Origin: an uncultured Pseudomonadota bacterium
GTDB taxonomy: Bacteria; Pseudomonadota; Gammaproteobacteria; Burkholderiales; Eutrophovitaceae
DNA: 62,840 nt
NCBI GenBank assembly: GCA_937983055.1
Contig: CALJLA010000023.1
Coordinates: 1 to 62,840 of the forward strand
Reading direction: 5' to 3'
Of this stretch, positions 8,692 through 62,840 are shown in pieces. The notes beneath the pieces are model-generated. The model saw nothing but the letters and a program-made list of their open reading frames with translations, had not been told where the DNA came from and searched no databases. Position numbers and translations under genes: made by a program. Every line of letters begins with the position of its first letter. Within the stretch, counting starts at the first letter, position 1.

Positions 8692-9207
8692 TTACGAAGG
8701 ATCCGTTGTCTCGGCTTCATAGCCCCAGACCTCCCAGCCTTCGCGTGGACCTCGAGCAAACAGCTCAATTCTCTTCGCTTCAGGAAAGCAGCGCCTGATG
8801 TAGCTGGCTACGAGGTCCGGCTTTTTCGAATGTTGTTCGCGTCGTGACGAAATCACACTGGGGATCCGCACCTTTGCCTGCGGGGGCGAGTACTTGCCGC
8901 GCACGCCGACGAGTAGCAGCTCGTGCTGGCCGCGAAACCAGTACCCCATCCCAATGCGCCCCTTGTCCCAGACGGCGTTCGTTTTGTACTCGAAACCCCA
9001 CCACTTCATGACGTCGAGGGCTTCGCGCAGCTTAGGCGCGGTCGCCCAGAGAAAGAGCACGGCATCGTCCGCGACTGGTACTGGGCAGTCGCGGAGCTCG
9101 CTCATCGACATCGTCTCGTACTGGTTCTCGACGCGGCGCGACTTCGACCGCGAGAACGAGTACCGCCAAGGCGGGTCGGCGTAGATGACTTCGTATCCCT
9201 CAGTCAC
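8692..9207 (-). CDS. MT-A70-family N6-adenine methyltransferase
   Basis: VIYADPPW catalytic motif, LFLWAT, HSKKP, IELFAR. GTG start at 9207 follows GGAGG. Confidence 0.9.
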   Translation of the reverse strand: MTEGYEVIYADPPWRYSFSRSKSRRVENQYETMSMSELRDCPVPVADDAVLFLWATAPKLREALDVMKWWGFEYKTNAVWDKGRIGMGYWFRGQHELLLVGVRGKYSPPQAKVRIPSVISSRREQHSKKPDLVASYIRRCFPEAKRIELFARGPREGWEVWGYEAETTDPS

Positions 9208-12200
9208 GGCGCCTCCGATGTCTTGTCGCGTTCGATGCAGACGAACGGGCCGCCGTGGATTGGGCAGTGAGACCACTTTACCGATCCCAGGTCGTTCAGG
9301 ACGCAGCCGCATTCGTATGCGCGTTGTTCCGTCGCTTTTGGCTGATCTTCCTCGGGAAAGACCGCCTTCCGGTGTGCCCCCTCCAACATGATCTCCTCGC
9401 TAACTGCGTCGATGATGGCACTGACGACGTCGATCGCTCGAGCCCTACCGAGAGTGCCGCTCTCTACGTAGTCGAACAGTGCCGCCGAAGCCTCGAGCGC
9501 TTTCTGGCTATAGTTCTCTTCCATCATGTGCGCTCCGTTGTCTTGTCGCGTTCGAGCTCTTCTCAAACGACTTCAATACGGCCGCTGCGGGCCGCGCGCA
9601 GGAGTCTCTCAAAGACTTCTTCCGCCAGTCGCATCGTGTATCTTTCGGTCCCCCAATCGAGCGCAACGACCTTGCAGCCCCACTCATCCGGCATGACCTC
9701 GAGTCGCAGCGGTGGCGCCTTAAGCTCGTCCGGCTCCACACCCTCGCGCGCCGCATCAATGATGGCGGTGACAACACCAAGCGAGCCTCGAGCTCCGGGG
9801 TCTGCGATGTAGTCACGAAGCTTCGCGGCTGCCTCGTATCTCTTTGTGCTGTGTTCTTTAGGCATCAATCCCACCATCCTCGAAACTGGTACTTGCGCGG
9901 AGCGTTCTCAGGATCTCGCTTCGCGAGCCGGCGCATTTTTCGGTGTGAGAGCATTCGAGCGTAGCGCTTGCTGCCCGGCTTCAAGGCCATCTTGCTCCAG
10001 CTCCTCCCGACTTGTTCGCCAACGTGGGTCTTTCTCATCGAACGCGCTTCCTTACCCTGGTTGACGTTCGCTGCTGTCCGCCCCCAGCGCTGCACGGGCT
10101 CGGCAAGTCGGGCACTCACAATCTTCGCGATGAACATACGAATGGCTGATCGCGTCACGGATTCCTCGCAACGCTCCCTCTAACTCCTTGACGCGAGCGC
10201 GGAGCTCGTCCCGCTCGCGCCTGACCTGCTTCAGCTCTTGGATCAGTTCGTCGACTGGGTCGCTCACTTGCTTGCTCCCAAGGCCTTATTCGAGTTCTCC
10301 TTCAGGCGCCGCTTCGCCTCCGCCCCAAGACTTGCCACCTCCTTCGCCGTCGGCAGCAGTCCCGCGAGCTCGAGAACCGGCAGGAGTGCCCAGCCAGCTT
10401 GGGTCAGTCGCGCGTACCGCCCCTTCCTTTGATCTACCAGCCCTCGGCGCTCCAGTGCATCTGTGCTCGACGTTGAATGCGGGTGCCCGTACAGCAGAGC
10501 GTAGACCTCGTCACTCCACGGTGCTTCGTTGACTTCGAGCGCAGCGTATACCGCGAGAACGTCGATCATTGGTTTCGAGAGCGTTAGCGAGAATGCCGCG
10601 CTCGTCACATGCTCAGCGAAACGGTTCTTGGCCTTTCCCATTCACTCCTCCTGCTGCGATTGCTCAGCGCGTTCGACGTCGGGCAGCCGTGGCCAGTTGG
10701 CCTCGTTAAGAAGGACTCTGGCCGCGATGACGTGTTCCTCTCGCTCGCCTCGACCGCAGACGTGCCTGCCCTCACACTCACATTCGTTCAACGAGAGCCA
10801 CCTGTCGACGTCATCTGCCAAGGCCGCCAGTGAATCGAACGTCTTGATTCTCTCGTTGCGCAGCTCAGTGATTTCGAGAAGGATCTGCCTCGCGCCGCTC
10901 CCGCCAAGAGCGAAGAGCGCCCCGCCGTAGGCAACCGCTTGCAGTTGCTCTTCGAGTTTCTCTGAGATATGTGCGCTCATTCCGCCTGCGCCTCCCTCTC
11001 GCGTTCGATCTTGTTGAGCCGCTTGAGCGCGGCGTAGCCCTTGTCGGTGACCTCTACGAGGCCGGCGCCCTCGTCGTCCCTCCCGTGGAAGCGGGCGCAC
11101 CCCGACAAGATCAGTAGCCCGAGCCCCGGCGCTTCGTCGAACGGATAGCCGTCGGCGATCCTCTGGAGCGTTTCCATCGCGATTCGCTCGCGGCGGATCA
11201 GGGATCGGAATCCGCGGTGTTTCATGACCAGTCCGCCTCGTCCTGCATCTGGCAGTCTTTGCAGCAGTACGGCCAGCCGCGTTTCGGATTCTCGATCTTG
11301 CTGTAGCACACCGCGCACTCTGCCGCGTCAGCGCAATCGCTGTCACACCATCGACCTTCGATGTTGTCCTCCTCGTGAAGCTCGACGCCGCACACCTCAC
11401 ACGTCACGGCTTTCCTCCTTCTGCGCTTTCGAATCGCAGTTGTTTGGCAGCGGCCCGCCCGTGCCGTGGCGGTCCCCCGCTCTCGTCTCGAGTAGAGACT
11501 CGAGACTCTGACGGCACGCAAAGGCCATGATCGAGTACAGATGGGCGCGCTCGACAATCTCGATTTCGTCCCACATGAAGGATAGATCATCGGACGCCTC
11601 GCATTGATCGGACATCCAGCGCTCCCAGCCGACGAAGTCCGCGTAGGGGCCGTGTTCCGGGACGTTCAGCGCGGCTTCGTGTGACCACGGATACGGGATG
11701 TCGTCGAATCCGGCCTCCCGTAACACGGCAAGCGTTTCGTCCATGGGAGGGCGCGTATCGGGCTTACTACTCACGATCTTCCGCCGCTCCGACCAGCGCT
11801 CGGCCTGCGGCCGTGGCGTGGTAGAACTGGTACTCCGAGTCCGTGTACCGGCGGCCCTTTTCGATGAGCCCGTCTTGGACCATCGCGAGAAGCAACTCGT
11901 CATCGGGAGACCCGATGTGCGCGCAGAAGTAGTTTCGGTACGGCTTCTTGCCGCGGCTCATCCCGAGCATGTGTCGCAGGACATCCTTCCGTCGGTATTC
12001 TTCAGTCGCCTTGTCCATCGCTTTCCTCCGCCTGCGCCTTCGAATCGCATTCGAGCTCGAACTGGCGCACGATCGCCTTCGCCAAACGATACAAGCCGTA
12101 GCCGTGTAGCGTGCCGGACGGGCTGCCGTCCGAGTTCTCGATCCAAAGATACGTATCCCGCCCCTGCAACCAGCCTTGAAGCCAGCCACCAGACGCACTG

Positions 12201-13265: not shown

Positions 13266-13490
13266 CTAACTCACTTTCTCCTGACGTGACCTTCGCTCGC
13301 GTTCGATTTCGCGCTCGACGTACCACGCCGCCTTGCGCAGATCCTCCACCCGGTCACCCTTCAGCCCGGCTCGCCACAGGTACTTGATCGCGTTGCCGAC
13401 GTTGAAGGGGAAATGCTCGACCACGTCGATGCACTCGACCCCGCTCGGGTGCTCGTTGTAGTGCTTGGGGTGATCGACCGAATCGCTCAT
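13266..13490 (-). CDS. DUF3310 (SaV-like) protein
   Basis: DSVDHPKHY...VECID...GNAIKYLWRAGLKG...EDLRKAAWY motif. Confidence 0.9.
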   Translation of the reverse strand: MSDSVDHPKHYNEHPSGVECIDVVEHFPFNVGNAIKYLWRAGLKGDRVEDLRKAAWYVEREIERERRSRQEKVS

Positions 13491-14194
13491 TCGTCGAGCC
13501 CCTCAGCGAACAGAGCCCACGTTCGAGGAAACTCCTCTTCGATTAACGATCCGACAGCGTTCGCGTACTGGCGAATCTCCCACTGTGCATGCGGGTGCAT
13601 TCGAAGAGTGAGGAACGCGAGCCAGTTGCGAAGGTTGGCCGACGCGCGCATTCGTGAGTAGCGACCGACCGGCAGCACGCAGCGGGCCAGTTCCTTCGGA
13701 ACCCCAGCTTCGAGAGAGCTTTCATATGCCTTCTGCTGGGCGTCGTACTGCACGCGAAGAAGGCCCCGGAAAGCCTCTGCTCGGCTTGGGGTCAAGACGT
13801 CAGCATCCTTGATCGTCCCTGCCTGCTTCGTCGACTTGCCCGCGTTGATCAGTATCCGCTCAGCCGTCGGAACGTAATTGACGTCGGGGAGTGGAATGTA
13901 ACGCGCCGACATCTCGTTGTAGCTCTGCGTCCGATGACGATGCCACTCGCGGAACACGAAGATCGGGGCCTGAATCTCCACCGTCATTCCCGCCATCTCG
14001 AACGGCGTCGCGTGCTTGTTCTTCCAGAGGTATCGAAGCAACTTCTCGTCGCCAGGGGCGTCAGGTGTCCCCCAGCCACGAAACCCTCCGTCTGTAGACA
14101 TGCGCGCGGCCTCGATGATTCGCTCGTCGGAGCCCCACGACTCGACAAACCGCAGATAACCATGGTCGAGAACCTTGATTTCCCTACTGCTCAC
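13487..14194 (-). CDS. thyX: FAD-dependent thymidylate synthase
   Basis: HATPFE, RHRTQSYNEMSARY (ThyX motif), ELARCVLP, AQWEIR. Confidence 0.95.
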   Translation of the reverse strand: MSSREIKVLDHGYLRFVESWGSDERIIEAARMSTDGGFRGWGTPDAPGDEKLLRYLWKNKHATPFEMAGMTVEIQAPIFVFREWHRHRTQSYNEMSARYIPLPDVNYVPTAERILINAGKSTKQAGTIKDADVLTPSRAEAFRGLLRVQYDAQQKAYESSLEAGVPKELARCVLPVGRYSRMRASANLRNWLAFLTLRMHPHAQWEIRQYANAVGSLIEEEFPRTWALFAEGLDE

Positions 14195-15261
14195 TGACAC
14201 CCTCCTTCTGCGACTTCGCCTCACGTTCGATCACGGTTCGCCCTGATTCCTCGCGTTCTCTATGGCCGCAATGAGGTCAAGAGAGTGTGCGCGCAGGAGG
14301 ATTTCGCACCCGGATTGACGTCGAACCCTGATGGGAACCCAGCCGTCTCCGTCGGCCCCACCAATCTCCAAGTCACAAGACACTTCGTCGTCTCCGACCT
14401 CGACTGCATCAACCAGACTGGACACCTTGATCACCTCTTCGCCCTCCTTTCGTTCTTCGATTGCGACGTTCGATTGCGTTCGATCACCCAACTTCGAAGG
14501 CCGACTCGAAGGCGGCCAAGTACTCGTCCGACGGCTCTGCGAATCGCACGTAGCGGAGATCAACCGGAGTCGGCCCGCTGCGTCCGCCAGCATGAATCGT
14601 CGAGAACACCGCAAACGGTCTCTCGATGTGGACAATCCGCACAGGCACGCCGAGATCTAACGGGCACTTTTCGTCCACGACCTCCTCGATAGGTATGACG
14701 ATCTGCCCAACCCGCAGATCGCTGTCACTAAGCGCCTTCACCGTCTTGCTCCACTTCGCGTCGAGCCGTTCTCTTCCCCGATTCGCTACTCTCGTGGTCC
14801 GTGTTGTGGTCGAGCAAGGCTGACGAGTAGAGGCCATCCTCGACGATGTCCGCCTGCTCCGGGCTCTCATCGCGGAGCGTCTCGATCGCAGAGCGAACAT
14901 CGGCCTCGTCGACAATTGCAGACAGCAGTCTGGCGTAGGCGACCCACGCCGCGAGTGCTTGTCTTGTCGGTGTGTCTTCATTTAGATTCATCCGTACTTC
15001 CTCCTGTGGTTTCCAGTCGCGCTCGATCACGACCTCGAAAGCAGAGCGACGAGCCCGACACACGCCGTCGCAAGCAAGATCACGGCAGCGGTGAGGCCGG
15101 CAACGAGCCAGAGCACGGCCAGCGGAACGACGACACTCCTCGGCTCTCGCTTCTGCTCTCTCGGCGGTGTGTAGGGGTCGCTGCTCATTGCTCTTAAATG
15201 CCCCGCCCCAAGTCGTAGTGGAGTTGGGGGAGAAGACACAGGGGCGGGGCAGGGCACAGTG

Positions 15262-16664: not shown

Positions 16665-17552
16665 TCATGCTGATTTCTGGCCTTTCTCCGCCTTTGCCTG
16701 GGAGATGATCTCCGATAGATCGTCATCGCTCATGAGCGAGTTGAACTGAATCCCAAGCTTGTTCGCCTCTCTCTCCAAGAGATCTCGAAGCGTTAGGTCG
16801 GGATGGTCATCGGGCAGCGCCCCCGCGTCCATCACCCCTCTCCCATCGGCCTGCTGAACAAGATAGCGGACAAGCCTCGGGTTTGGCTTCGGGAGACACC
16901 AGTACTTGCGATCACCCCAGAAGAGAGCCCCAAGGCCCCGCTTGTTCTCTTGGAGCCACTTGTTAGCTTCCGAGCTGAACGGAATATTGTACCAGAAGCG
17001 GTGCGTTGTTCTCGGGAAGTCGCTATTGTATCCGCCCCCCTTCGACGAACCTCCGCCCTGTGGCGGGGCCTCCCCCTCGACATTTGTTTGCTCTTTGTCG
17101 TAAAGGGCGAGGCCGAACGGGTAGCCGAAAGTCATCAAGGCTCGCTTCATCGCGTCGGACTCCGCCTCCTTGATCGCCGACTCGTGAGCCTCCCCTTTCT
17201 TATCGACGTACTTCGACTTGCCATGGCCGACGCCATGGCCATCGCGAGAAACCCAGGTGTCCCCAGCCATGACTGTTATCGTGCATTTCGCGCGATAGGT
17301 CACAAGGTAGCCGCTGTCTGAGCCCATCTCACAGGCAATCTCGGTCTCTACCGATCGAGTCCAGCCATCGAATCCGAAGATCCGATTCGCTTCATCGATC
17401 GCGTGCCATGCCTCGATGTATGAAAGAGGTCGCCCCCCAGGCCCCTCCCGAGTCTTGACGTTCGAGCGGTCGAGCTTTGCCGACAGAAGCCTGACCTGCT
17501 CATCCGTAAAGCCATTAGGGGGATCTCGCTGCTCTTGGTCTCCCTCGATCAT
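16665..17552 (-). CDS. Rad52/Rad22-family single-strand annealing protein (Sak-like)
   Basis: REGPGGRPLSYIE...ANRIFGFDGW and AIKEAESDAMKRALMTFG..FGLALYDK motifs. Confidence 0.92.
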   Translation of the reverse strand: MIEGDQEQRDPPNGFTDEQVRLLSAKLDRSNVKTREGPGGRPLSYIEAWHAIDEANRIFGFDGWTRSVETEIACEMGSDSGYLVTYRAKCTITVMAGDTWVSRDGHGVGHGKSKYVDKKGEAHESAIKEAESDAMKRALMTFGYPFGLALYDKEQTNVEGEAPPQGGGSSKGGGYNSDFPRTTHRFWYNIPFSSEANKWLQENKRGLGALFWGDRKYWCLPKPNPRLVRYLVQQADGRGVMDAGALPDDHPDLTLRDLLEREANKLGIQFNSLMSDDDLSEIISQAKAEKGQKSA

Positions 17553-22691: not shown

Positions 22692-23085
22692 CCATGCGAT
22701 CCGACCTGAAAGGATGCGAGCCGAAACCAAGCGAAACCAGTCGAAACGACACGATTGGAAGCGAGACGAGACGATACGATCCGCTCAATTGGAGATGAAA
22801 CGATACGAGAGGAGACGAGAGGATCCGAATCGACACGATATCGATGCGACCCGAAGCCATCCGATGCGAGCCGAATTGAGTCGAAACGACGCGATACGAG
22901 AGGATTCGCTCAAGCCGAAACGACTTGACACGAAGCGATAGGACATGAGACGAGACGATTCGCTCAAGACGAAAATGACGCGATGCGACACGATGCGACA
23001 CGAAGCGACTCGAGGCGAAACGAAGCGACACGAAGCGAAACGATAGGAGGCGACACGACACGATTGGAAGCTAGACGAGACGAAG
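22692..23085 (+). repeat. CGA-NN pentamer array 1 (candidate guide-like ncRNA)
   Basis: About 73 units of (C/T/G)GA-NN with an invariant A, in segments of 18/23/9/23 units separated by CGCTCAA at 22782, 22907 and 22961. Intergenic. Confidence 0.9.
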
Positions 23086-23123
23086 CGCCTTGATTAACTA
23101 AACACGCTCTAAGGAGAACGAGC

Positions 23124-23729
23124 ATGTACCAGCCCCTTTACGTTCATATTCGAGGAATTGCCCCGCAGCTGCAGAACAATGGCCAGCGCAAGGATCCGCT
23201 CAATCGCTGGGCCAAGGCGATAGCGAGGATATCGAAGAAGAGGACGAAGACCGATGACGATCACATGGCGATGAGGGAGGCCGAATTCAAGGGTTCCCTC
23301 TACTGTCGTGACGATAGGGAGGGGAGAGTCGTCTACTGGCCAGCGGACAACATCCACGCCTGCATCAAGACTGCGGCGAAGATGAAAAAGCAGGGGAAGG
23401 TTGTCGATACGGCGGTGGTCGTCGGCCCTAACGGTGGCCAGCTGATTTACGACGGACCCAGGACTCGTGACGAGCTTTGGGAGGCCGGTGACTCTTTCCG
23501 TCTGCTCAAGCCGACAAAGCGCGGCGTTATGAGCTGCCGTCCCTGTTTCCATGAGTGGGAGGTAAAATTCAGCCTGCACTACCTCGAAACGCTTCTGGGT
23601 AAAGAAGACATCGTGCAGCTGATCAAGGACGCGGGGGCCTTTATCGGCCTGAGCGACTGGCCGCGAAGGTACGGCCTTTTCAAGATCGAAGATATTCAGC
23701 ACAAGGAGGTAGAGATCGATGTCGAGTGA
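23124..23729 (+). CDS. Stand-alone Cas7/RAMP-superfamily-like RNA-binding protein
   Basis: N-terminal strand VHIRGIAPQL, YWPADNIHACIKTAAK (like the RAMP iPgssiKGa motif), RPCFHEWEVKF, and C-terminal Gly-rich loop GAFIGLSDWPRRYGLFKI. AAGGAG SD. Confidence 0.75.
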   Translation: MYQPLYVHIRGIAPQLQNNGQRKDPLNRWAKAIARISKKRTKTDDDHMAMREAEFKGSLYCRDDREGRVVYWPADNIHACIKTAAKMKKQGKVVDTAVVVGPNGGQLIYDGPRTRDELWEAGDSFRLLKPTKRGVMSCRPCFHEWEVKFSLHYLETLLGKEDIVQLIKDAGAFIGLSDWPRRYGLFKIEDIQHKEVEIDVE

Positions 23730-24153
23730 GACGAGGGAACTGGCAACGACGATCGCGGGCGGCTGTGGGCCAGGGGACATGATCTCGGCTGAGAAGATCG
23801 AGAAGGCCACGGGCGTCAAGCGCGAGGAGGCGAGGTACGCCTTGGAGGTTCTCAAGCTTCAGAGCGCGATCGAAGCCATCGTCTCCGAGTCGGTCGGCCG
23901 AGAGGTGTTGACGCGCCAGGTCAAGGGGGCGATCCAGATTCTCACCCCGATACAGGCAGCGGACTACACGCTTGATGGACAGAGGAGGGCGCTCGACCTG
24001 GCGCGTCGGCGCCATGTCCAGTTTACGGCCTGTGTGCGCCCTGACGATTTCGAGTCGTCGTCGGAGAGGGCCGAATACTACGATCGCCAGGCAAAGTTTG
24101 CCCGCATTCTTCTGCACGCGGAGAAGCGCAGTCTTGGCGTCGAGGACGATTGA
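23719..24153 (+). CDS. Accessory protein of the RAMP/pentamer-array locus, function unknown
   Basis: 144 aa, overlaps the RAMP gene stop and has an AAGGAGG SD. Its TGA stop is the first unit of array 2. Confidence 0.75.
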   Translation: MSSETRELATTIAGGCGPGDMISAEKIEKATGVKREEARYALEVLKLQSAIEAIVSESVGREVLTRQVKGAIQILTPIQAADYTLDGQRRALDLARRRHVQFTACVRPDDFESSSERAEYYDRQAKFARILLHAEKRSLGVEDD

Positions 24154-24555
24154 GTCGAGCCGATACGAGCCGAAACGAAATGAGCCGAGACGATACGAGA
24201 CGACGCTAGGCGAGGCGAAGCGAAACGAACCGCTCAAGACGATCTGACCCGAGCCGAAACGACGCGATGCGAAACGATGCGCTCAAAAAGATCCGAAACG
24301 AAACGAGTCGACACGAAGCGACACGACACGAAGCGACACGAAGCGACACGAATCGAGACGATTCGCTCAAGCTGATTCGAGACGATTCGCTCAAGCTGAT
24401 TCGAGACGATTCGAAACGACACGAGCCGAGCCGATTCGAGACGATGCGAGGCGAGTCGACACGATGCGAGACGAAGCGAGACGATGCGACACGATGCGCT
24501 CAAGACGATACGATCCGATACGAGCTGAGACGACGCGAGACGAAACGAGCCGATT
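24151..24555 (+). repeat. CGA-NN pentamer array 2 (candidate guide-like ncRNA)
   Basis: About 72 units in segments of 16/8/15/3/20/10 separated by CGCTCAA at 24231, 24280, 24364, 24388 and 24497. Includes an exact 24-bp tandem duplication at 24353-24413. Confidence 0.9.
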
Positions 24556-25544: not shown

Positions 25545-25867
25545 ATCCCGTGAGCAAGTACACGCCGGGGCTGTGGGTGGCCCAGAAGTCGGACTGGAAG
25601 CTCTACAATGAAAGGCCGTGGTTCGTTTACTCTTCGATGCGCTCGACCTGGGACGGCTATAAGTACACCGATGACCCCGTGGCATCGATGGTACGCACCG
25701 AGGCCGATGCCCGCCTTATCGCTGCGGCTCCGCTTCTTCTCAGCGTTCTCGCAGCTCTGGAGGGCGCGTGCGACTCAATTGAGCTCGAGTGGGGTGAGGA
25801 GGACGTAGCGGCTGAAAGAGACCTTATCAAGCGAGTAAAGGTGGTGCTGGGCGATGCATTTGAATGA
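25541..25867 (+). CDS. Phage hypothetical protein (TPGxW...ADARLIAAAP family)
   Basis: YTPGLW and EADARLIAAAPLL motifs common in phage early genes. Confidence 0.7.
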   Translation: MNPVSKYTPGLWVAQKSDWKLYNERPWFVYSSMRSTWDGYKYTDDPVASMVRTEADARLIAAAPLLLSVLAALEGACDSIELEWGEEDVAAERDLIKRVKVVLGDAFE

Positions 25868-26183
25868 ATACCAGCAACGTGCGCACAAGACCGCGTTCTA
25901 CGGCAAGTCGATCGACCCGCTGGCCTACTGCGCGCTGAAGCTCAACGGCGAGGCGGGCGAGGTAGCGGAAAAGGTGGGCAAGCTCTACCGCGATGAGAAG
26001 GGGCGGATGTCAGTCGATCGAGCGATGGCTATTGCGGCCGAGCTCGGCGACGTCTTGTGGTATCTGCAAGAGCTCGCAGGCCTTCTCGACATCGATCTCG
26101 AAGAGGTTGCGATGGCGAATCTCGAGAAGCTTGAGGACAGGGCGACGCGCGGTGTCATCTGCGGTGACGGAGACAATCGATGA
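25854..26183 (+). CDS. MazG-like nucleoside triphosphate pyrophosphohydrolase
   Basis: LNEYQ, GEAGEVAEK, ELGDVLWY, NLEKL..R..RG...GDGDNR. Confidence 0.9.
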   Translation: MHLNEYQQRAHKTAFYGKSIDPLAYCALKLNGEAGEVAEKVGKLYRDEKGRMSVDRAMAIAAELGDVLWYLQELAGLLDIDLEEVAMANLEKLEDRATRGVICGDGDNR

Positions 26184-26991: not shown

Positions 26992-28053
26992 TTACGCGGA
27001 TCCCGACTGCACAGGCGATGCCCCACTCGCTCTGCGAGGCCTGGGGCTTTTTTCGTTGCTGACCATGAGGCGTTCAAGCGTCTCCATTTGAAGGGCCTGG
27101 CGCACGTGTGCGTAGCGTAGCGCGACCTGGCGATCGGTGTGGCCGGTCACCAGCATCGCCTCCTCCAGACTGGCCCCACGCTCGATGAAGTTGGTCATGG
27201 CGCTGTGGCGCAGATCGTGGAAGCGGAGCCCGGGGAGGCCGGCTGCCGCACAAGCCTTTCTCCAGGCAGTGCGCCCGCTCCAGCGGTCGAGGGGGCGCCC
27301 TTCCCGATGCCAGACAGCCGGAACCAGCCGCGCCTCGTAGAGAGCCTTTTCGCGCCTCTCAGAGAGGATCTCTCTCATGCGGGGTGTGATCGGCAGGATG
27401 ATTCCGCGCCGATTCTTGGTCTTTCGCCAAGTGATTCGATCCCTGGCGATATCGGCCCATTGGAGGGCTTCGAGCTCGCCCCTGCGGCGTCCCGTGAGGT
27501 AGGCGAACTCGGCGAAGGTGCGGAAATATTCGGGTAGAGCGGCGAGGATGGTGGAGAAATCTTCAGGTGGGCAGAAGATTCCGGTCTCTTCATTGCGCTC
27601 GTCCAAGCGTGGGAAGTGGGGGAGGATTCCACGGGGGATTTTTCCGCGCTTGGCCGCATCGTTGAGGGCTCCGCGGACATCGGCCATGTAGAGGTTGACG
27701 GTTCCCGGGGCGAGGCCGAGCTCGAGGAGTTCGCCCTGCCAGCTCTCGAGCTCGGTCGCAGTGATTTCGTCGACTTTGCAGGGGCCGAGGGCTTTGCGCG
27801 TGCGCTTGAGTCGGCTCTCGACGGTCGAGGTATCCTGGCCATCGCGCTGCTTGCGCTCGAGCCAGGCATTTAGGAGGGCATTAAGGGTGGGCGTTCGGCC
27901 GATGACGTGACGTCCCTCAGCGATGTCGGCTGCTCGGGCTCCCAGGAGACGCTGGGCCTCGGCTTCGTCGCGTGTGCCCAGGCTCTCGCGTACGCGGCGT
28001 CCACGATGCTTGTACTCGGCGTAGTAGATGCCGTTACGGGTGGTGAGTCTCAT
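26992..28053 (-). CDS. int: Tyrosine integrase/recombinase
   Basis: N-terminal arm-binding-like domain (RVRESLGTRD), TGRRRGEL, KTKN, FHDLRHS, TGH...RY catalytic residues. Confidence 0.95.
   Translation of the reverse strand: MRLTTRNGIYYAEYKHRGRRVRESLGTRDEAEAQRLLGARAADIAEGRHVIGRTPTLNALLNAWLERKQRDGQDTSTVESRLKRTRKALGPCKVDEITATELESWQGELLELGLAPGTVNLYMADVRGALNDAAKRGKIPRGILPHFPRLDERNEETGIFCPPEDFSTILAALPEYFRTFAEFAYLTGRRRGELEALQWADIARDRITWRKTKNRRGIILPITPRMREILSERREKALYEARLVPAVWHREGRPLDRWSGRTAWRKACAAAGLPGLRFHDLRHSAMTNFIERGASLEEAMLVTGHTDRQVALRYAHVRQALQMETLERLMVSNEKSPRPRRASGASPVQSGSA
27020..27053 (+). terminator. Intrinsic terminator of the rightward operon, overlapping the integrase 3' end
   Basis: GCCCCA-CTCGC-TCT-GCGAG-GCC-TGGGGC followed by T6. 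Confidence 0.7.
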
Positions 28054-37306: not shown

Positions 37307-37383
37307 CTGGCAGTAGCTCAGCCTGGAAGAGCGCGGGGCTTGGGACCCTGAGGTCGTCGGTTCAAATCCGGCCTGCCAGACCA
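37307..37383 (+). tRNA. tRNA-Pro(TGG)
   Basis: CTGGCAG/CTGCCAG acceptor, D arm, anticodon loop CT-TGG-GA, TTCAAAT T-loop, encoded CCA. Confidence 0.92.
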
Positions 37384-60499: not shown

Positions 60500-62840
60500 T
60501 GGGCAGGCGACCCCTTGCAGTTCAGCGAGCCATTCGAGGGTTGTACAGCAATTACAATCCTCTTGGCGGCGTTCCCGAGGGAGCGCTCTTGCGCGCGATG
60601 AATTGCAACATCGATCGCCCCGGAGTTCTGTCGAAGCGGCGTGGGTTCAAGAGAGTCGGTAACGAGCTTTCTCAAAGAGCTAAAAGCTTTCTCGACTTCA
60701 AGAACCGCCTCGTAGTTCACGATGGACAAAAGCTTCGCTACGACTCCACTGGCTCTGGTGATTGGGTCGACTGGGATGGCCTCTACCAGGCGCCTGACAG
60801 CTCGCATCGATTGAAAGGCGTGGAGGCTCGATCAAGCACTTACTTTGTCACCGCGAATGGCGTCTACAAGAACGACTCCCTGACGAACAATCCAAAGCTC
60901 GCTGGCATTCCCCAAGCGCTCGATATCTCCTTGTCGAAGGTCGGGTCAGGCGGAGGCTTCCTGACCCCGGATGCCCAGGTTAGCTATCGCGTTGTGTGGG
61001 GCCGTAAGGACGACAACGACTTTCTCGTTCTCGGCGCTCCGAGCTACCAGGAAGTTGCTACCAACGCGACGACATCGGTGACGATGAGTGCCAGCGGGTC
61101 AACGGTGACGGTTAGCCATCCGTCGCACGGCTATGCGACTCTCGACACGATCTCCATTTCTTCGGAAGACACAGCTTTCGAGCCCGGCAACAAGACGATC
61201 GCGCTGCTCAATTCGGACGAGTACACCTACACGCTTACGGTTCCGCACACGGGATCTGGATCCGGAACAGCGGGCAAGGCCTTTGACGTCGACCTGGAAT
61301 TCACGATCCCCGATGGAATCGTCGATGGCGACTTCTACCAGATCTACCGCACCGCACTCTCTGCCGACGCAACGACTTTCCCAGGAGACGAGCATCGCCT
61401 CGTGATCGAGAGAACGGTCTCATCTTCGGATCTCTCGAGCAAGACGATCAGCTTTAGCGACGACTCGGATTCGGACTTTTTGGGCGAGCGCCTTTACACG
61501 AACCCAAGCGAGGACGGAATTTCTCAGGAGAACCGCAGGCCGCCCTTTGCCAAAGACCTCGCTCTTTTCAAGGGGTACATGTTCTACGCGAACACTCGGC
61601 GTGAGCATGAGATCAAGGTCCAGCTTCGCAGCCTTAACGGTATTTCGAATGGCGACACAATTTCGATTCACCGCCCCGGCAGTTCGGTCACTTACACGTT
61701 CTCGTCTGCGGAAGATATCGAGAATCGTAAGTTTCTCCTCTCGACGTCGCAGCCGACGGCGTCGCAGAACATTTCGGAGACGATGAAGAGCCTTGTCCGG
61801 GTGATCAACAGAGAGACGGAGGATTCTGACCTCTACGCCTGGTATTGCTCTGGCAACGACGACGCTCCTGGCCAAGTTCTTTTGCGCGGAAGATCTCTTT
61901 CAAGCGATGGGTTCTACCTTCTCGCAAGCAGCTCAACGGTCGGCGGAAAGTTCAACCCAGAGATACCGACCTCTGGAGATCGCGTATCCAGCTCAGATGA
62001 AAGCGTTCCAAATGGCTTAGCTCGGTCTAAGTTCGAGCAGCCGGAGGCAGTGCCCAACGAGGAGCCCGTTGGGTCCGAGGAATCGCCGACGCTCAGGATC
62101 CTACCTCTTCGAGATTCGCTCATCATCTTGAAGGAGGAAGGGGTGTGGCGTCTTAGCGGCGAGAGTGAGACGAGCTTCGTCACTAAGGAGCTTGACCCGA
62201 CAGTTCGGTTGAAGGCCCCCGATACAGCGGTGGTTCTCAACAACGCGGTTTATTGCGCCTCAACGCAGGGCGTTGTGAGGATCGATGAGCAGGGGACGGC
62301 TCTGGTTAGCTGGCCCGAAGAGAACGAACTGAAGAAGGTCATTTCACTGGGGACCTTTGCCGAGAAGAGCTTCGCCGTCGCCTACGAGAGCGAGCGAAAG
62401 TACATCCTCTTTACCCCCGAAGATGGATCGGACAAGAACTCCTGCCTTGGCTGGATCTACAACTATGTCACCAAGGAGTGGACTCAATGGTCAAAGCCGG
62501 TCTCGTGTGGAGCCGTTCTTTTCGACAGCGATGTCCTGCACATGGGGCATGCCGATGACAAGTACGTTTTGAAAGAGCGGAAAACGTTGACCGCTACGGG
62601 CAGCAGCGACTACGTCGATGAAGACATCCCTTGCTCGATCACATCTCACACTACGACGACCGACGCCGAGGGAGATACCGTGACCATGGTCACGGTTACC
62701 TACGACTATCCAGCTCGACCGATCCAGCCAGGGTTCCTCTTCACCTATGGGAACGAAGAGGCCACAGTTACTGCTGTAACAACCACTGGCTTGAACAGCT
62801 TCACGCTTACCCTCAATGAGCAGATATCGATGCCTGTTCT
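60499..62840 (+). CDS. Tail nozzle/stabilisation-like protein, 5' part (continues at the window start; about 943 aa in total)
   Basis: ATG overlaps the adaptor stop. P.GALLRA.N..IDRPGVLSKRRG start and beta-propeller-like segments (LIILKEEGVWRL); same frame as ORF 99-638. Confidence 0.8.
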   Translation, partial: MGRRPLAVQRAIRGLYSNYNPLGGVPEGALLRAMNCNIDRPGVLSKRRGFKRVGNELSQRAKSFLDFKNRLVVHDGQKLRYDSTGSGDWVDWDGLYQAPDSSHRLKGVEARSSTYFVTANGVYKNDSLTNNPKLAGIPQALDISLSKVGSGGGFLTPDAQVSYRVVWGRKDDNDFLVLGAPSYQEVATNATTSVTMSASGSTVTVSHPSHGYATLDTISISSEDTAFEPGNKTIALLNSDEYTYTLTVPHTGSGSGTAGKAFDVDLEFTIPDGIVDGDFYQIYRTALSADATTFPGDEHRLVIERTVSSSDLSSKTISFSDDSDSDFLGERLYTNPSEDGISQENRRPPFAKDLALFKGYMFYANTRREHEIKVQLRSLNGISNGDTISIHRPGSSVTYTFSSAEDIENRKFLLSTSQPTASQNISETMKSLVRVINRETEDSDLYAWYCSGNDDAPGQVLLRGRSLSSDGFYLLASSSTVGGKFNPEIPTSGDRVSSSDESVPNGLARSKFEQPEAVPNEEPVGSEESPTLRILPLRDSLIILKEEGVWRLSGESETSFVTKELDPTVRLKAPDTAVVLNNAVYCASTQGVVRIDEQGTALVSWPEENELKKVISLGTFAEKSFAVAYESERKYILFTPEDGSDKNSCLGWIYNYVTKEWTQWSKPVSCGAVLFDSDVLHMGHADDKYVLKERKTLTATGSSDYVDEDIPCSITSHTTTTDAEGDTVTMVTVTYDYPARPIQPGFLFTYGNEEATVTAVTTTGLNSFTLTLNEQISMPV
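62693..62840 (+). repeat. Terminal overlap, right copy (matches 1-148)
   Basis: See 1-148. Confidence 0.9.

Follow-up and report, generated by a model that had tools for sequence, protein, structure and literature searches.

A phage VIPR locus with CGA-NN arrays and a predicted guide that reads the active-site motif of IrrE/ImmA/CapP proteases

The locus at positions 22,692 to 24,555 of the window, by which we mean the whole 62,840-nucleotide stretch of DNA that was analysed, is almost certainly a VIPR system, because it combines a protein that matches Vipr over its full length, a gene in the position of vap, and flanking arrays of variable pentamers. The arrays have a CGA-NN scaffold, and one of their segments, read with a skip of one target base after every two, is antisense to codons of the HExxH active-site motif of IrrE/ImmA/CapP proteases. 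The phage probably draws guides from its CGA-NN arrays and silences protease genes of this type. What the sequences themselves show is the Vipr family of the protein, the layout of the arrays, the association of CGA arrays with vipr genes, and the one decoded segment.

A two-gene locus between pentamer arrays

The published VIPR architecture, which the initial annotation of this DNA had described correctly, is phage-borne and has arrays of GGY-NN pentamers (10.64898/2026.04.26.720920). In the window, two arrays with a period of 5 nt bracket a two-gene cassette, as the annotation had said. The features are:

22692..23085, + strand: upstream CGA-NN array (predicted vrRNAs), from lag-5 identity and unit parsing
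22842..22896, + strand: predicted guide segment of 11 units that, when one base is skipped after every two, runs antisense to the first two codon positions of Y-R-F-T-I-A-H-E-L-G-H
22897..22913, + strand: two stereotyped end units (NN = GA, TT) and CGCTCAA, matching none of the 11 exact target sites
23111..23116, + strand: AAGGAG, a ribosome-binding-site-like motif before vipr, from sequence
23124..23729, + strand: vipr, encoding a 201-aa RAMP protein, from the full-length profile match to SUSP1 Vipr
23719..24153, + strand: vap (accessory), 144 aa, overlapping the end of vipr and conserved after it
24151..24555, + strand: downstream CGA-NN array, from lag-5 identity and unit parsing

The period is pronounced. 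The identity of bases five positions apart is 0.56 in array 1 and 0.59 in array 2, compared with a window mean of 0.244 and with a maximum of 0.365 over 200-nt stretches in the rest of the window. The unit parser, which accepted up to one mismatch from CGA, returned 147 units, two of which lie immediately beyond array 1. The remaining 145, within the arrays, comprise 117 CGA, 12 TGA, 9 GGA, 4 CCA, 2 CTA and 1 AGA, and the third base of the triplet is A in every one (145/145). All 16 dinucleotides occur at the NN positions, with an entropy of 3.66 of 4 bits. The near-constant triplet with its invariant A and variable dinucleotide had been noticed at the outset, and the opening NN string then given for array 1 is correct. 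The two single-base slips named at the same time map to 22841 and 22975, and what had been called internal punctuation consists of eight exact CGCTCAA+NN blocks, starting at 22782, 22907 and 22961 in array 1, and at 24231, 24280, 24364, 24388 and 24497 in array 2. Each block moves the phase by -1. The stop codon of the second gene (24151-24153) is at the same time the first triplet of array 2.

The arrays are probably non-coding. Open reading frames run across them, but the arrays of relatives do not have a single run of four NN units in common with those of the window. Both arrays are matched by contigs from one public run, with 0 differences in the pieces listed, 8 of 10; this speaks against an assembly slip, but the run may derive from the same sample, and the match is therefore not independent support. 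Among the 25 5-periodic stretches listed for the binned genome, there are no other CGA arrays.

In published guides of the SUSP1 type, 9-16 repeats precede a structured 3' tail that is conserved (10.64898/2026.04.26.720920). Segments of the window arrays have 2-22 units and short CGY ends, and RNA folding of five stretches gave no signal (z values from -0.74 to +1.48). The separators differ, being 7-nt CGCTCAA in the window and a pseudoknot tail of roughly 40 nt in SUSP1. Across 16 loci, 44 of 64 CGA runs end with CGC or CGT as the next triplet, so that a pyrimidine in the third position is likely to mark the 3' end of a guide. CGCNCAA breaks are also present in two relatives (L001 and L004). 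The stretch 22897..22913 would then form a 3' end that takes no part in targeting and mark the boundary of the guide. A change of phase by -1 at every break is compatible with guides that overlap by 1 nt, and in this the window resembles the "staggered" arrays mentioned in the legend of Fig. S18 of the discovery preprint (10.64898/2026.04.26.720920).

One predicted guide decodes to a protease active site

The proposal that the dinucleotides spell a gapped target was pursued by decoding segments as NNx; scans of large collections were confined to a 1-nt skip. Three window segments were tried in turn, and the second of them, the 13-unit segment at 22842, had been picked before its meaning was seen. 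An exact scan of viral contigs with 9 units of this guide gave one match. When extended, it agrees with units 1-11 at 21 of 22 bases and with the last two units at 0 of 4. The site is in antisense orientation within a PF06114 gene from a provirus record, and an HTH gene precedes that gene. The exact 22-base scan of genome contigs (596 Gb) returned 11 matches, against 0.01-0.07 expected. All 11 sites encode YRFT(I/M)AHELGH, antisense to the guide and with the skipped base in the wobble position; 10 of the 11 are in PF06114 genes, and together they span five phyla, as assigned from record titles. In IrrE/ImmA/CapP proteases, Y-R-F-T-I-A-H-E-L-G-H forms the HExxH active-site motif. The match begins with the first unit of the segment, stops at the start of the stereotyped tail, and covers the ten most conserved codons.

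When up to two mismatches were allowed, 29 sites were found in 28 of 401 genomes, and none with the reversed pattern. HExxH motifs are present at all 29 near-match sites, and PF06114 in 11 of the 12 that were scanned. Among 42 target sites, an HTH gene is located just upstream in 13, an HTH domain is fused in 15, and neither was found in 14, the HTH profile for this count having been built from 7 of these same loci. For several of the targets, capP is the best-scoring assignment (E 1e-72 to 1e-19). HTH-protease fusions in the target set also match models of RmrA, which we take to be an antitoxin. Silencing of such fusions might be harmful to the phage.

The gapped code thus leads from one segment to a conserved gene family, while no target was found for the other nine segments of at least 9 units; the wobble-aligned 1-nt skip is apparent for one segment in ten. 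A scan with other segments gave three matches, none of which extends, and another such scan gave 0 matches in 301 genomes. No skip length stands out for 29 guides against 1.37 Mb, and in a scan of the segments against their own genome, skips of 0-3 performed alike. Since the searches could find only guides on conserved motifs, the apparent precision of the 22842 guide is inflated.

The scarcity of targets raises the question of whether a real VIPR locus has largely decayed by slippage and duplication, leaving one readable guide and no present function. We consider this unlikely, though worth weighing. Segment lengths down to 2 and 4 units, the two slips, the tandem duplication at 24364-24411 in array 2, and an excess of repeated NN runs (3 repeated 4-unit runs in the window, against 0.38 expected) suggest some decay or reshuffling of the arrays. 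The segment at 22692-22781 resembles the protease-motif guide in rearranged form, but not significantly (p 0.054). On the other hand, both genes are intact and have ribosome-binding-site-like motifs, and the third base has remained A in every unit. Missing targets are, moreover, to be expected if the rivals of the phage are unsampled, and many guides in published VIPR clades are likewise without targets (10.64898/2026.04.26.720920).

It is considerably less probable that the CGA VIPR is active, but that its match to the protease motif is a coincidence, with true targets or a skip rule of another kind. An 11-unit string can be placed at about 48 positions in the two arrays, and one that happens to fit a conserved motif will match it many times over. 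From the collection size, a loose ceiling of 0.6% can be calculated for any 11-unit string to reach at least 11 exact matches; cross-phylum matches in codon phase should be far rarer. Coincidence is also hard to reconcile with the choice of the segment before its meaning was seen, with the limits of the match at the first unit and the stereotyped tail, with its coverage of the most conserved codons, and with the absence of matches for the other real segments and the reversed control. The wobble phase agrees with that of published VIPR targets (10.64898/2026.04.26.720920; 10.64898/2026.10.15.759431), the second of which describes wobble-phase targeting of active-site codons, for example in a satellite recombinase. 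The SUSP1 VIPR resembles the window locus both in a 1-nt skip in wobble phase and in a guide on active-site codons, and differs from it in the target family, which is IrrE/ImmA/CapP in the window.

Vipr and Vap proteins

The 201-aa product has 19 relatives with 47-70% identity. A profile built from these relatives matches SUSP1 Vipr (PDB 36pp_D) over the full length (E 6.8e-39), and also 2982 cluster representatives at E up to 0.001. The protein in the Vipr position of a Felixounavirus is 37% identical to the window Vipr. The predicted structure (pLDDT 83.9) of 23124-23729 was compared with solved folds by Foldseek, as had been suggested, and Cmr and Csm3 RAMPs came out on top (E 2e-4, 12-13% identity). 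The product is hence a small single-RRM RAMP protein of the Vipr family. The RAMP assignment made from the sequence alone is supported by profile, model and fold search, whereas the notion of Cas7 as the closest relative is not, given E 7e-39 for Vipr versus E 2e-4 for the Foldseek hits.

An orphan Cas7/Csm3 subunit of CRISPR class 1, which would work with an unusual RNA and act on RNA rather than DNA, is very improbable. Its solved neighbours in the fold search are indeed Cmr and Csm3 subunits, the RRM/RAMP fold and a glycine-rich loop are found in Csm3, Cmr and Cas7 as well as in the window protein, and the decoded guide is antisense to mRNA, so that RNA pairing is compatible with that guide alone. 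However, the sequence match to Vipr is far stronger than the likeness to the class 1 RAMPs (12-13% identity, TM about 0.4-0.5), the code is non-contiguous, and SUSP1 Vipr binds double-stranded DNA (10.64898/2026.04.26.720920; 10.64898/2026.04.26.720927). The CRISPR array and cas operon that define class 1 were not found. No cas family turned up in those window ORFs that were searched with Pfam, PHROGs or PADLOC, no 23-mer is present three times in the window, and an Rfam scan of the window matched only a tRNA; the annotation, which had seen no cas1/2/3/5/6 and no CRISPR array, was right on this point. What remains is a minimal locus of vipr and vap, as is typical of VIPR.

A vap-type gene follows vipr in four relatives (L001, L004, L005 and L007). 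The 144-aa product aligns in hhalign with YP_009200828.1 (83.5%, E 8.3e-6, 99 columns), the product of the gene after vipr in the Felixounavirus phage AYO145A, and by gene position it would correspond to SUSP1 vap1. By Vipr and Vap homology, the nearest VIPR type is type II. Like the SUSP1 type II system (PDB 36PP), the window locus has a phage vipr with one accessory gene and flanking pentamer arrays with variable NN.

The canonical type II triplet is not used: none of the 145 units is GGY. In SUSP1 Vipr, H17 and D177 read G1, R138 and W178 read G2, and a third-base pocket of E71, M72, C173 and R179 excludes purines, as described in the available parts of 10.64898/2026.04.26.720927. GGY>GGA is among the scaffold changes tested in SUSP1 (10.64898/2026.04.26.720920). 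In the alignment of the two proteins, which are homologous over their full length, the window Vipr keeps R139 and W179 (SUSP1 R138 and W178) as well as D178, and has D75 together with N18, N76 and P180, the last three in the places of SUSP1 H17, M72 and R179. The pattern fits a retained G2 contact with changed first and third positions. The CGA scaffold, however, has its invariant purine at the very base for which the SUSP1 pocket excludes purines, a point against the proposed reading, and no single residue tracks CGA use among the Viprs compared.

CGA arrays in relatives

The annotation had asked whether homologs sit beside 5-periodic arrays. They do: CGA-type arrays lie beside vipr in all five distinct close loci for which DNA is available (L001/L003, L004, L005, L006 and L007), and a relative with 34% identity has GGC arrays. 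A search that started from the DNA, for eight CGA-NN units, returned 100 stretches in viral sequences, and 80 of these had flanks. A Vipr is encoded nearby in 6 of the 12 loci with variable NN, which represent four distinct systems, and in none of the 68 low-entropy CGA microsatellites; the corresponding GGY scan found Vipr at 62 of 80 loci. A pentanucleotide microsatellite or an assembly artefact beside an unrelated gene can thus be dismissed, the annotation having also argued against a simple microsatellite, because the 68 of 80 viral loci that are simple microsatellites have NN entropies of about 0-1 bits, compared with 3.66 bits here, and lack Vipr, and because the arrays of relatives recur with unrelated NN strings.

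CGA arrays are also present beside distant Viprs. In a quick tree of 57 proteins (10 CGA, 47 GGY), the scaffold label changes five times, and at least three of the changes are forced by strong branches. An AU test rejects a single CGA clade (p 1.9e-63; 24 of the 57 rows, LG+G4, long branches present). Tree and test sample CGA and GGY only, and do not tell gains of CGA from losses.

The annotation had suspected that a CGA scaffold would be a distinct variant, and a variant it is. It is not a new system, as preprints already contain non-GGY scaffolds: NNNGG, YNNNG and NNNNG in the discovery paper (10.64898/2026.04.26.720920), and 21 non-canonical clusters including GAC, CAC, WGT and TGH in the available parts of 10.64898/2026.10.21.760802. 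The window shares with these non-canonical arrays a fixed non-GGY triplet with variable NN beside a Vipr fold. Written as ANNCG, its unit fits NNNNG, so that it agrees with the GGY-related consensus under the loosest class only. CGA was not found as a named scaffold in the portions of the VIPR preprints that were available, which did not extend to the motif listings of Figs S17 and S10; the letters came up three times, inside sequences. CGCNCAA breaks and IrrE/ImmA/CapP targets were likewise not found in those portions or in literature searches, and the available passages of 10.64898/2026.10.21.760802 give no target for non-canonical arrays. What may be new here is a CGA dialect that is scattered on the Vipr tree and comes with a native guide-target pair, and a target class, IrrE/ImmA/CapP, that may make VIPR a tool of counter-defence.

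A complete 62-kb phage record (G824) has both a CGA system (L083:1950-3045) and a separate, intact GGC system (L295:1400-2400), and is thus a natural test of scaffold orthogonality. The same record contains a lone CGA run of 18 units that adjoins an apparent tape-measure gene (L097:290-390). In a related phage (L047:1971-2070), the flanks of this run are near-identical and the NN strings are unrelated, which suggests that guides are exchanged at a fixed site. CGA runs with variable NN, 9-10 units long, also occur near position 2000 of L027, L052 and L012, whose records are 93%, 29% and 7% complete; no Vipr was found in these records, and the runs are possibly solo guides. Solo guides that hijack a Vipr have already been described, according to the available parts of the VIPR preprints. 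At two further loci (L077:1750-2350 and L094:1-638), CGA guides alternate with spacers of roughly 50-60 nt that contain inverted repeats and a common TTCGCAA core and have no match in Rfam.

Proposed mechanism and implications

In 10.64898/2026.04.26.720920 and 10.64898/2026.04.26.720927, the SUSP1 VIPR is described as placing one Vipr on each pentamer, with gapped pairing to double-stranded DNA and transcriptional silencing; Vap1 is needed in infection, as stated in the part of 10.64898/2026.10.15.759431 that was available. The arrays of the window are likely to be transcribed, with cleavage at the CGCTCAA breaks releasing the guides. By analogy with SUSP1, each guide would be covered by a filament of Vipr subunits that take up five bases apiece, and its exposed NN pairs would bind double-stranded DNA two on and one off, blocking transcription, presumably with the help of Vap.

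In response to DNA damage, the proteases CapP, ImmA and IrrE cut an HTH repressor, whereupon CBASS is induced or prophages and ICEs are excised (10.1101/2022.04.27.489752). The HExxH codons of the CapH-CapP, ImmR-ImmA and DdrO-IrrE switches match the decoded guide; the switches are the likely target, and are not part of the window locus. Judging from gene order, at loci where the protease gene comes after that of its HTH repressor, a block within the former would leave the repressor untouched and keep the element locked. The locked element could be a rival prophage or ICE of the ImmR-ImmA type, or a defence operon controlled by CapH-CapP. A single guide could serve for many unrelated copies, since it ignores the wobble base and the motif is close to the family consensus. 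Both capP and immA fit as the natural target.

If the natural target is capP, VIPR would act against host immunity in addition to rival phages. With immA as the target, the attack on lysis-lysogeny switches that is already known would extend to the anti-repressor protease. In either case, a guide that reads an amino-acid motif common to several phyla indicates that a skip code can be aimed at a protein family rather than at one gene. More generally, the locus provides evidence, at the level of sequence, for a non-GGY VIPR scaffold with a two-on, one-off code, and supplies a native pair of guide and target. Viprs of the CGA and GGY kinds are candidate orthogonal programmable DNA binders, and a natural experiment in the change of RNA specificity of a RAMP.

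A bolder version of this reading goes further, and we regard it as less likely than not. CGA would be a second, orthogonal VIPR dialect with several gains or losses, which would allow two systems per genome that do not cross-load and an escape from hijack by GGY solo guides. In addition, a single guide against the consensus active site of the protease family would serve as counter-defence, keeping both CapP immunity and ImmA rivals off.

Phage and host context

VIPR systems are mostly encoded by phages or proviruses, and this also applies to the window locus. Family profile scans of the 62.8-kb contig identify terminase, major head, integrase, tail spike and portal genes. Its ends (1-150 and 62690-62840) are joined by an exact 54-bp overlap within a longer imperfect repeat, a region of long ORFs without family matches, and the contig looks like a near-whole phage. 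Its GC content is 58%, compared with 65% for the bin, and it has only short matches in common with other contigs of the bin. A Planctomycetota host, implied by the genomes that the annotation proposed to search, is not established, and the contig has no clear link to its bin. None of the genes matched by the guide is tied to the host of the phage.

The phage contig encodes no HE[LIFVM][GA]H motif. Within the bin, PF06114 is represented by a single gene, on a separate contig (C24). It is the capP of a CBASS operon (capH-capP-phospholipase-cyclase-E2, G000:C24:46480-50307, L292), the surroundings of which we take to be ICE-like. This capP is the best site of the bin for the 22842 guide (18/22), a score that shuffled guides reach in 0.25 of scans.

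Elsewhere, the window encodes a DNA methyltransferase (8692-9312), a thymidylate synthase (13487-14224), a Rad52/22-like recombinase (16665-17552), MazG (25854-26183) and a tyrosine integrase (26992-28053). A tRNA-Pro(TGG) is located at 37307-37383, and a phage protein encoded on the minus strand at 15262-16578 matches the dockerin type I domain (PF00404, E 4.7e-7).
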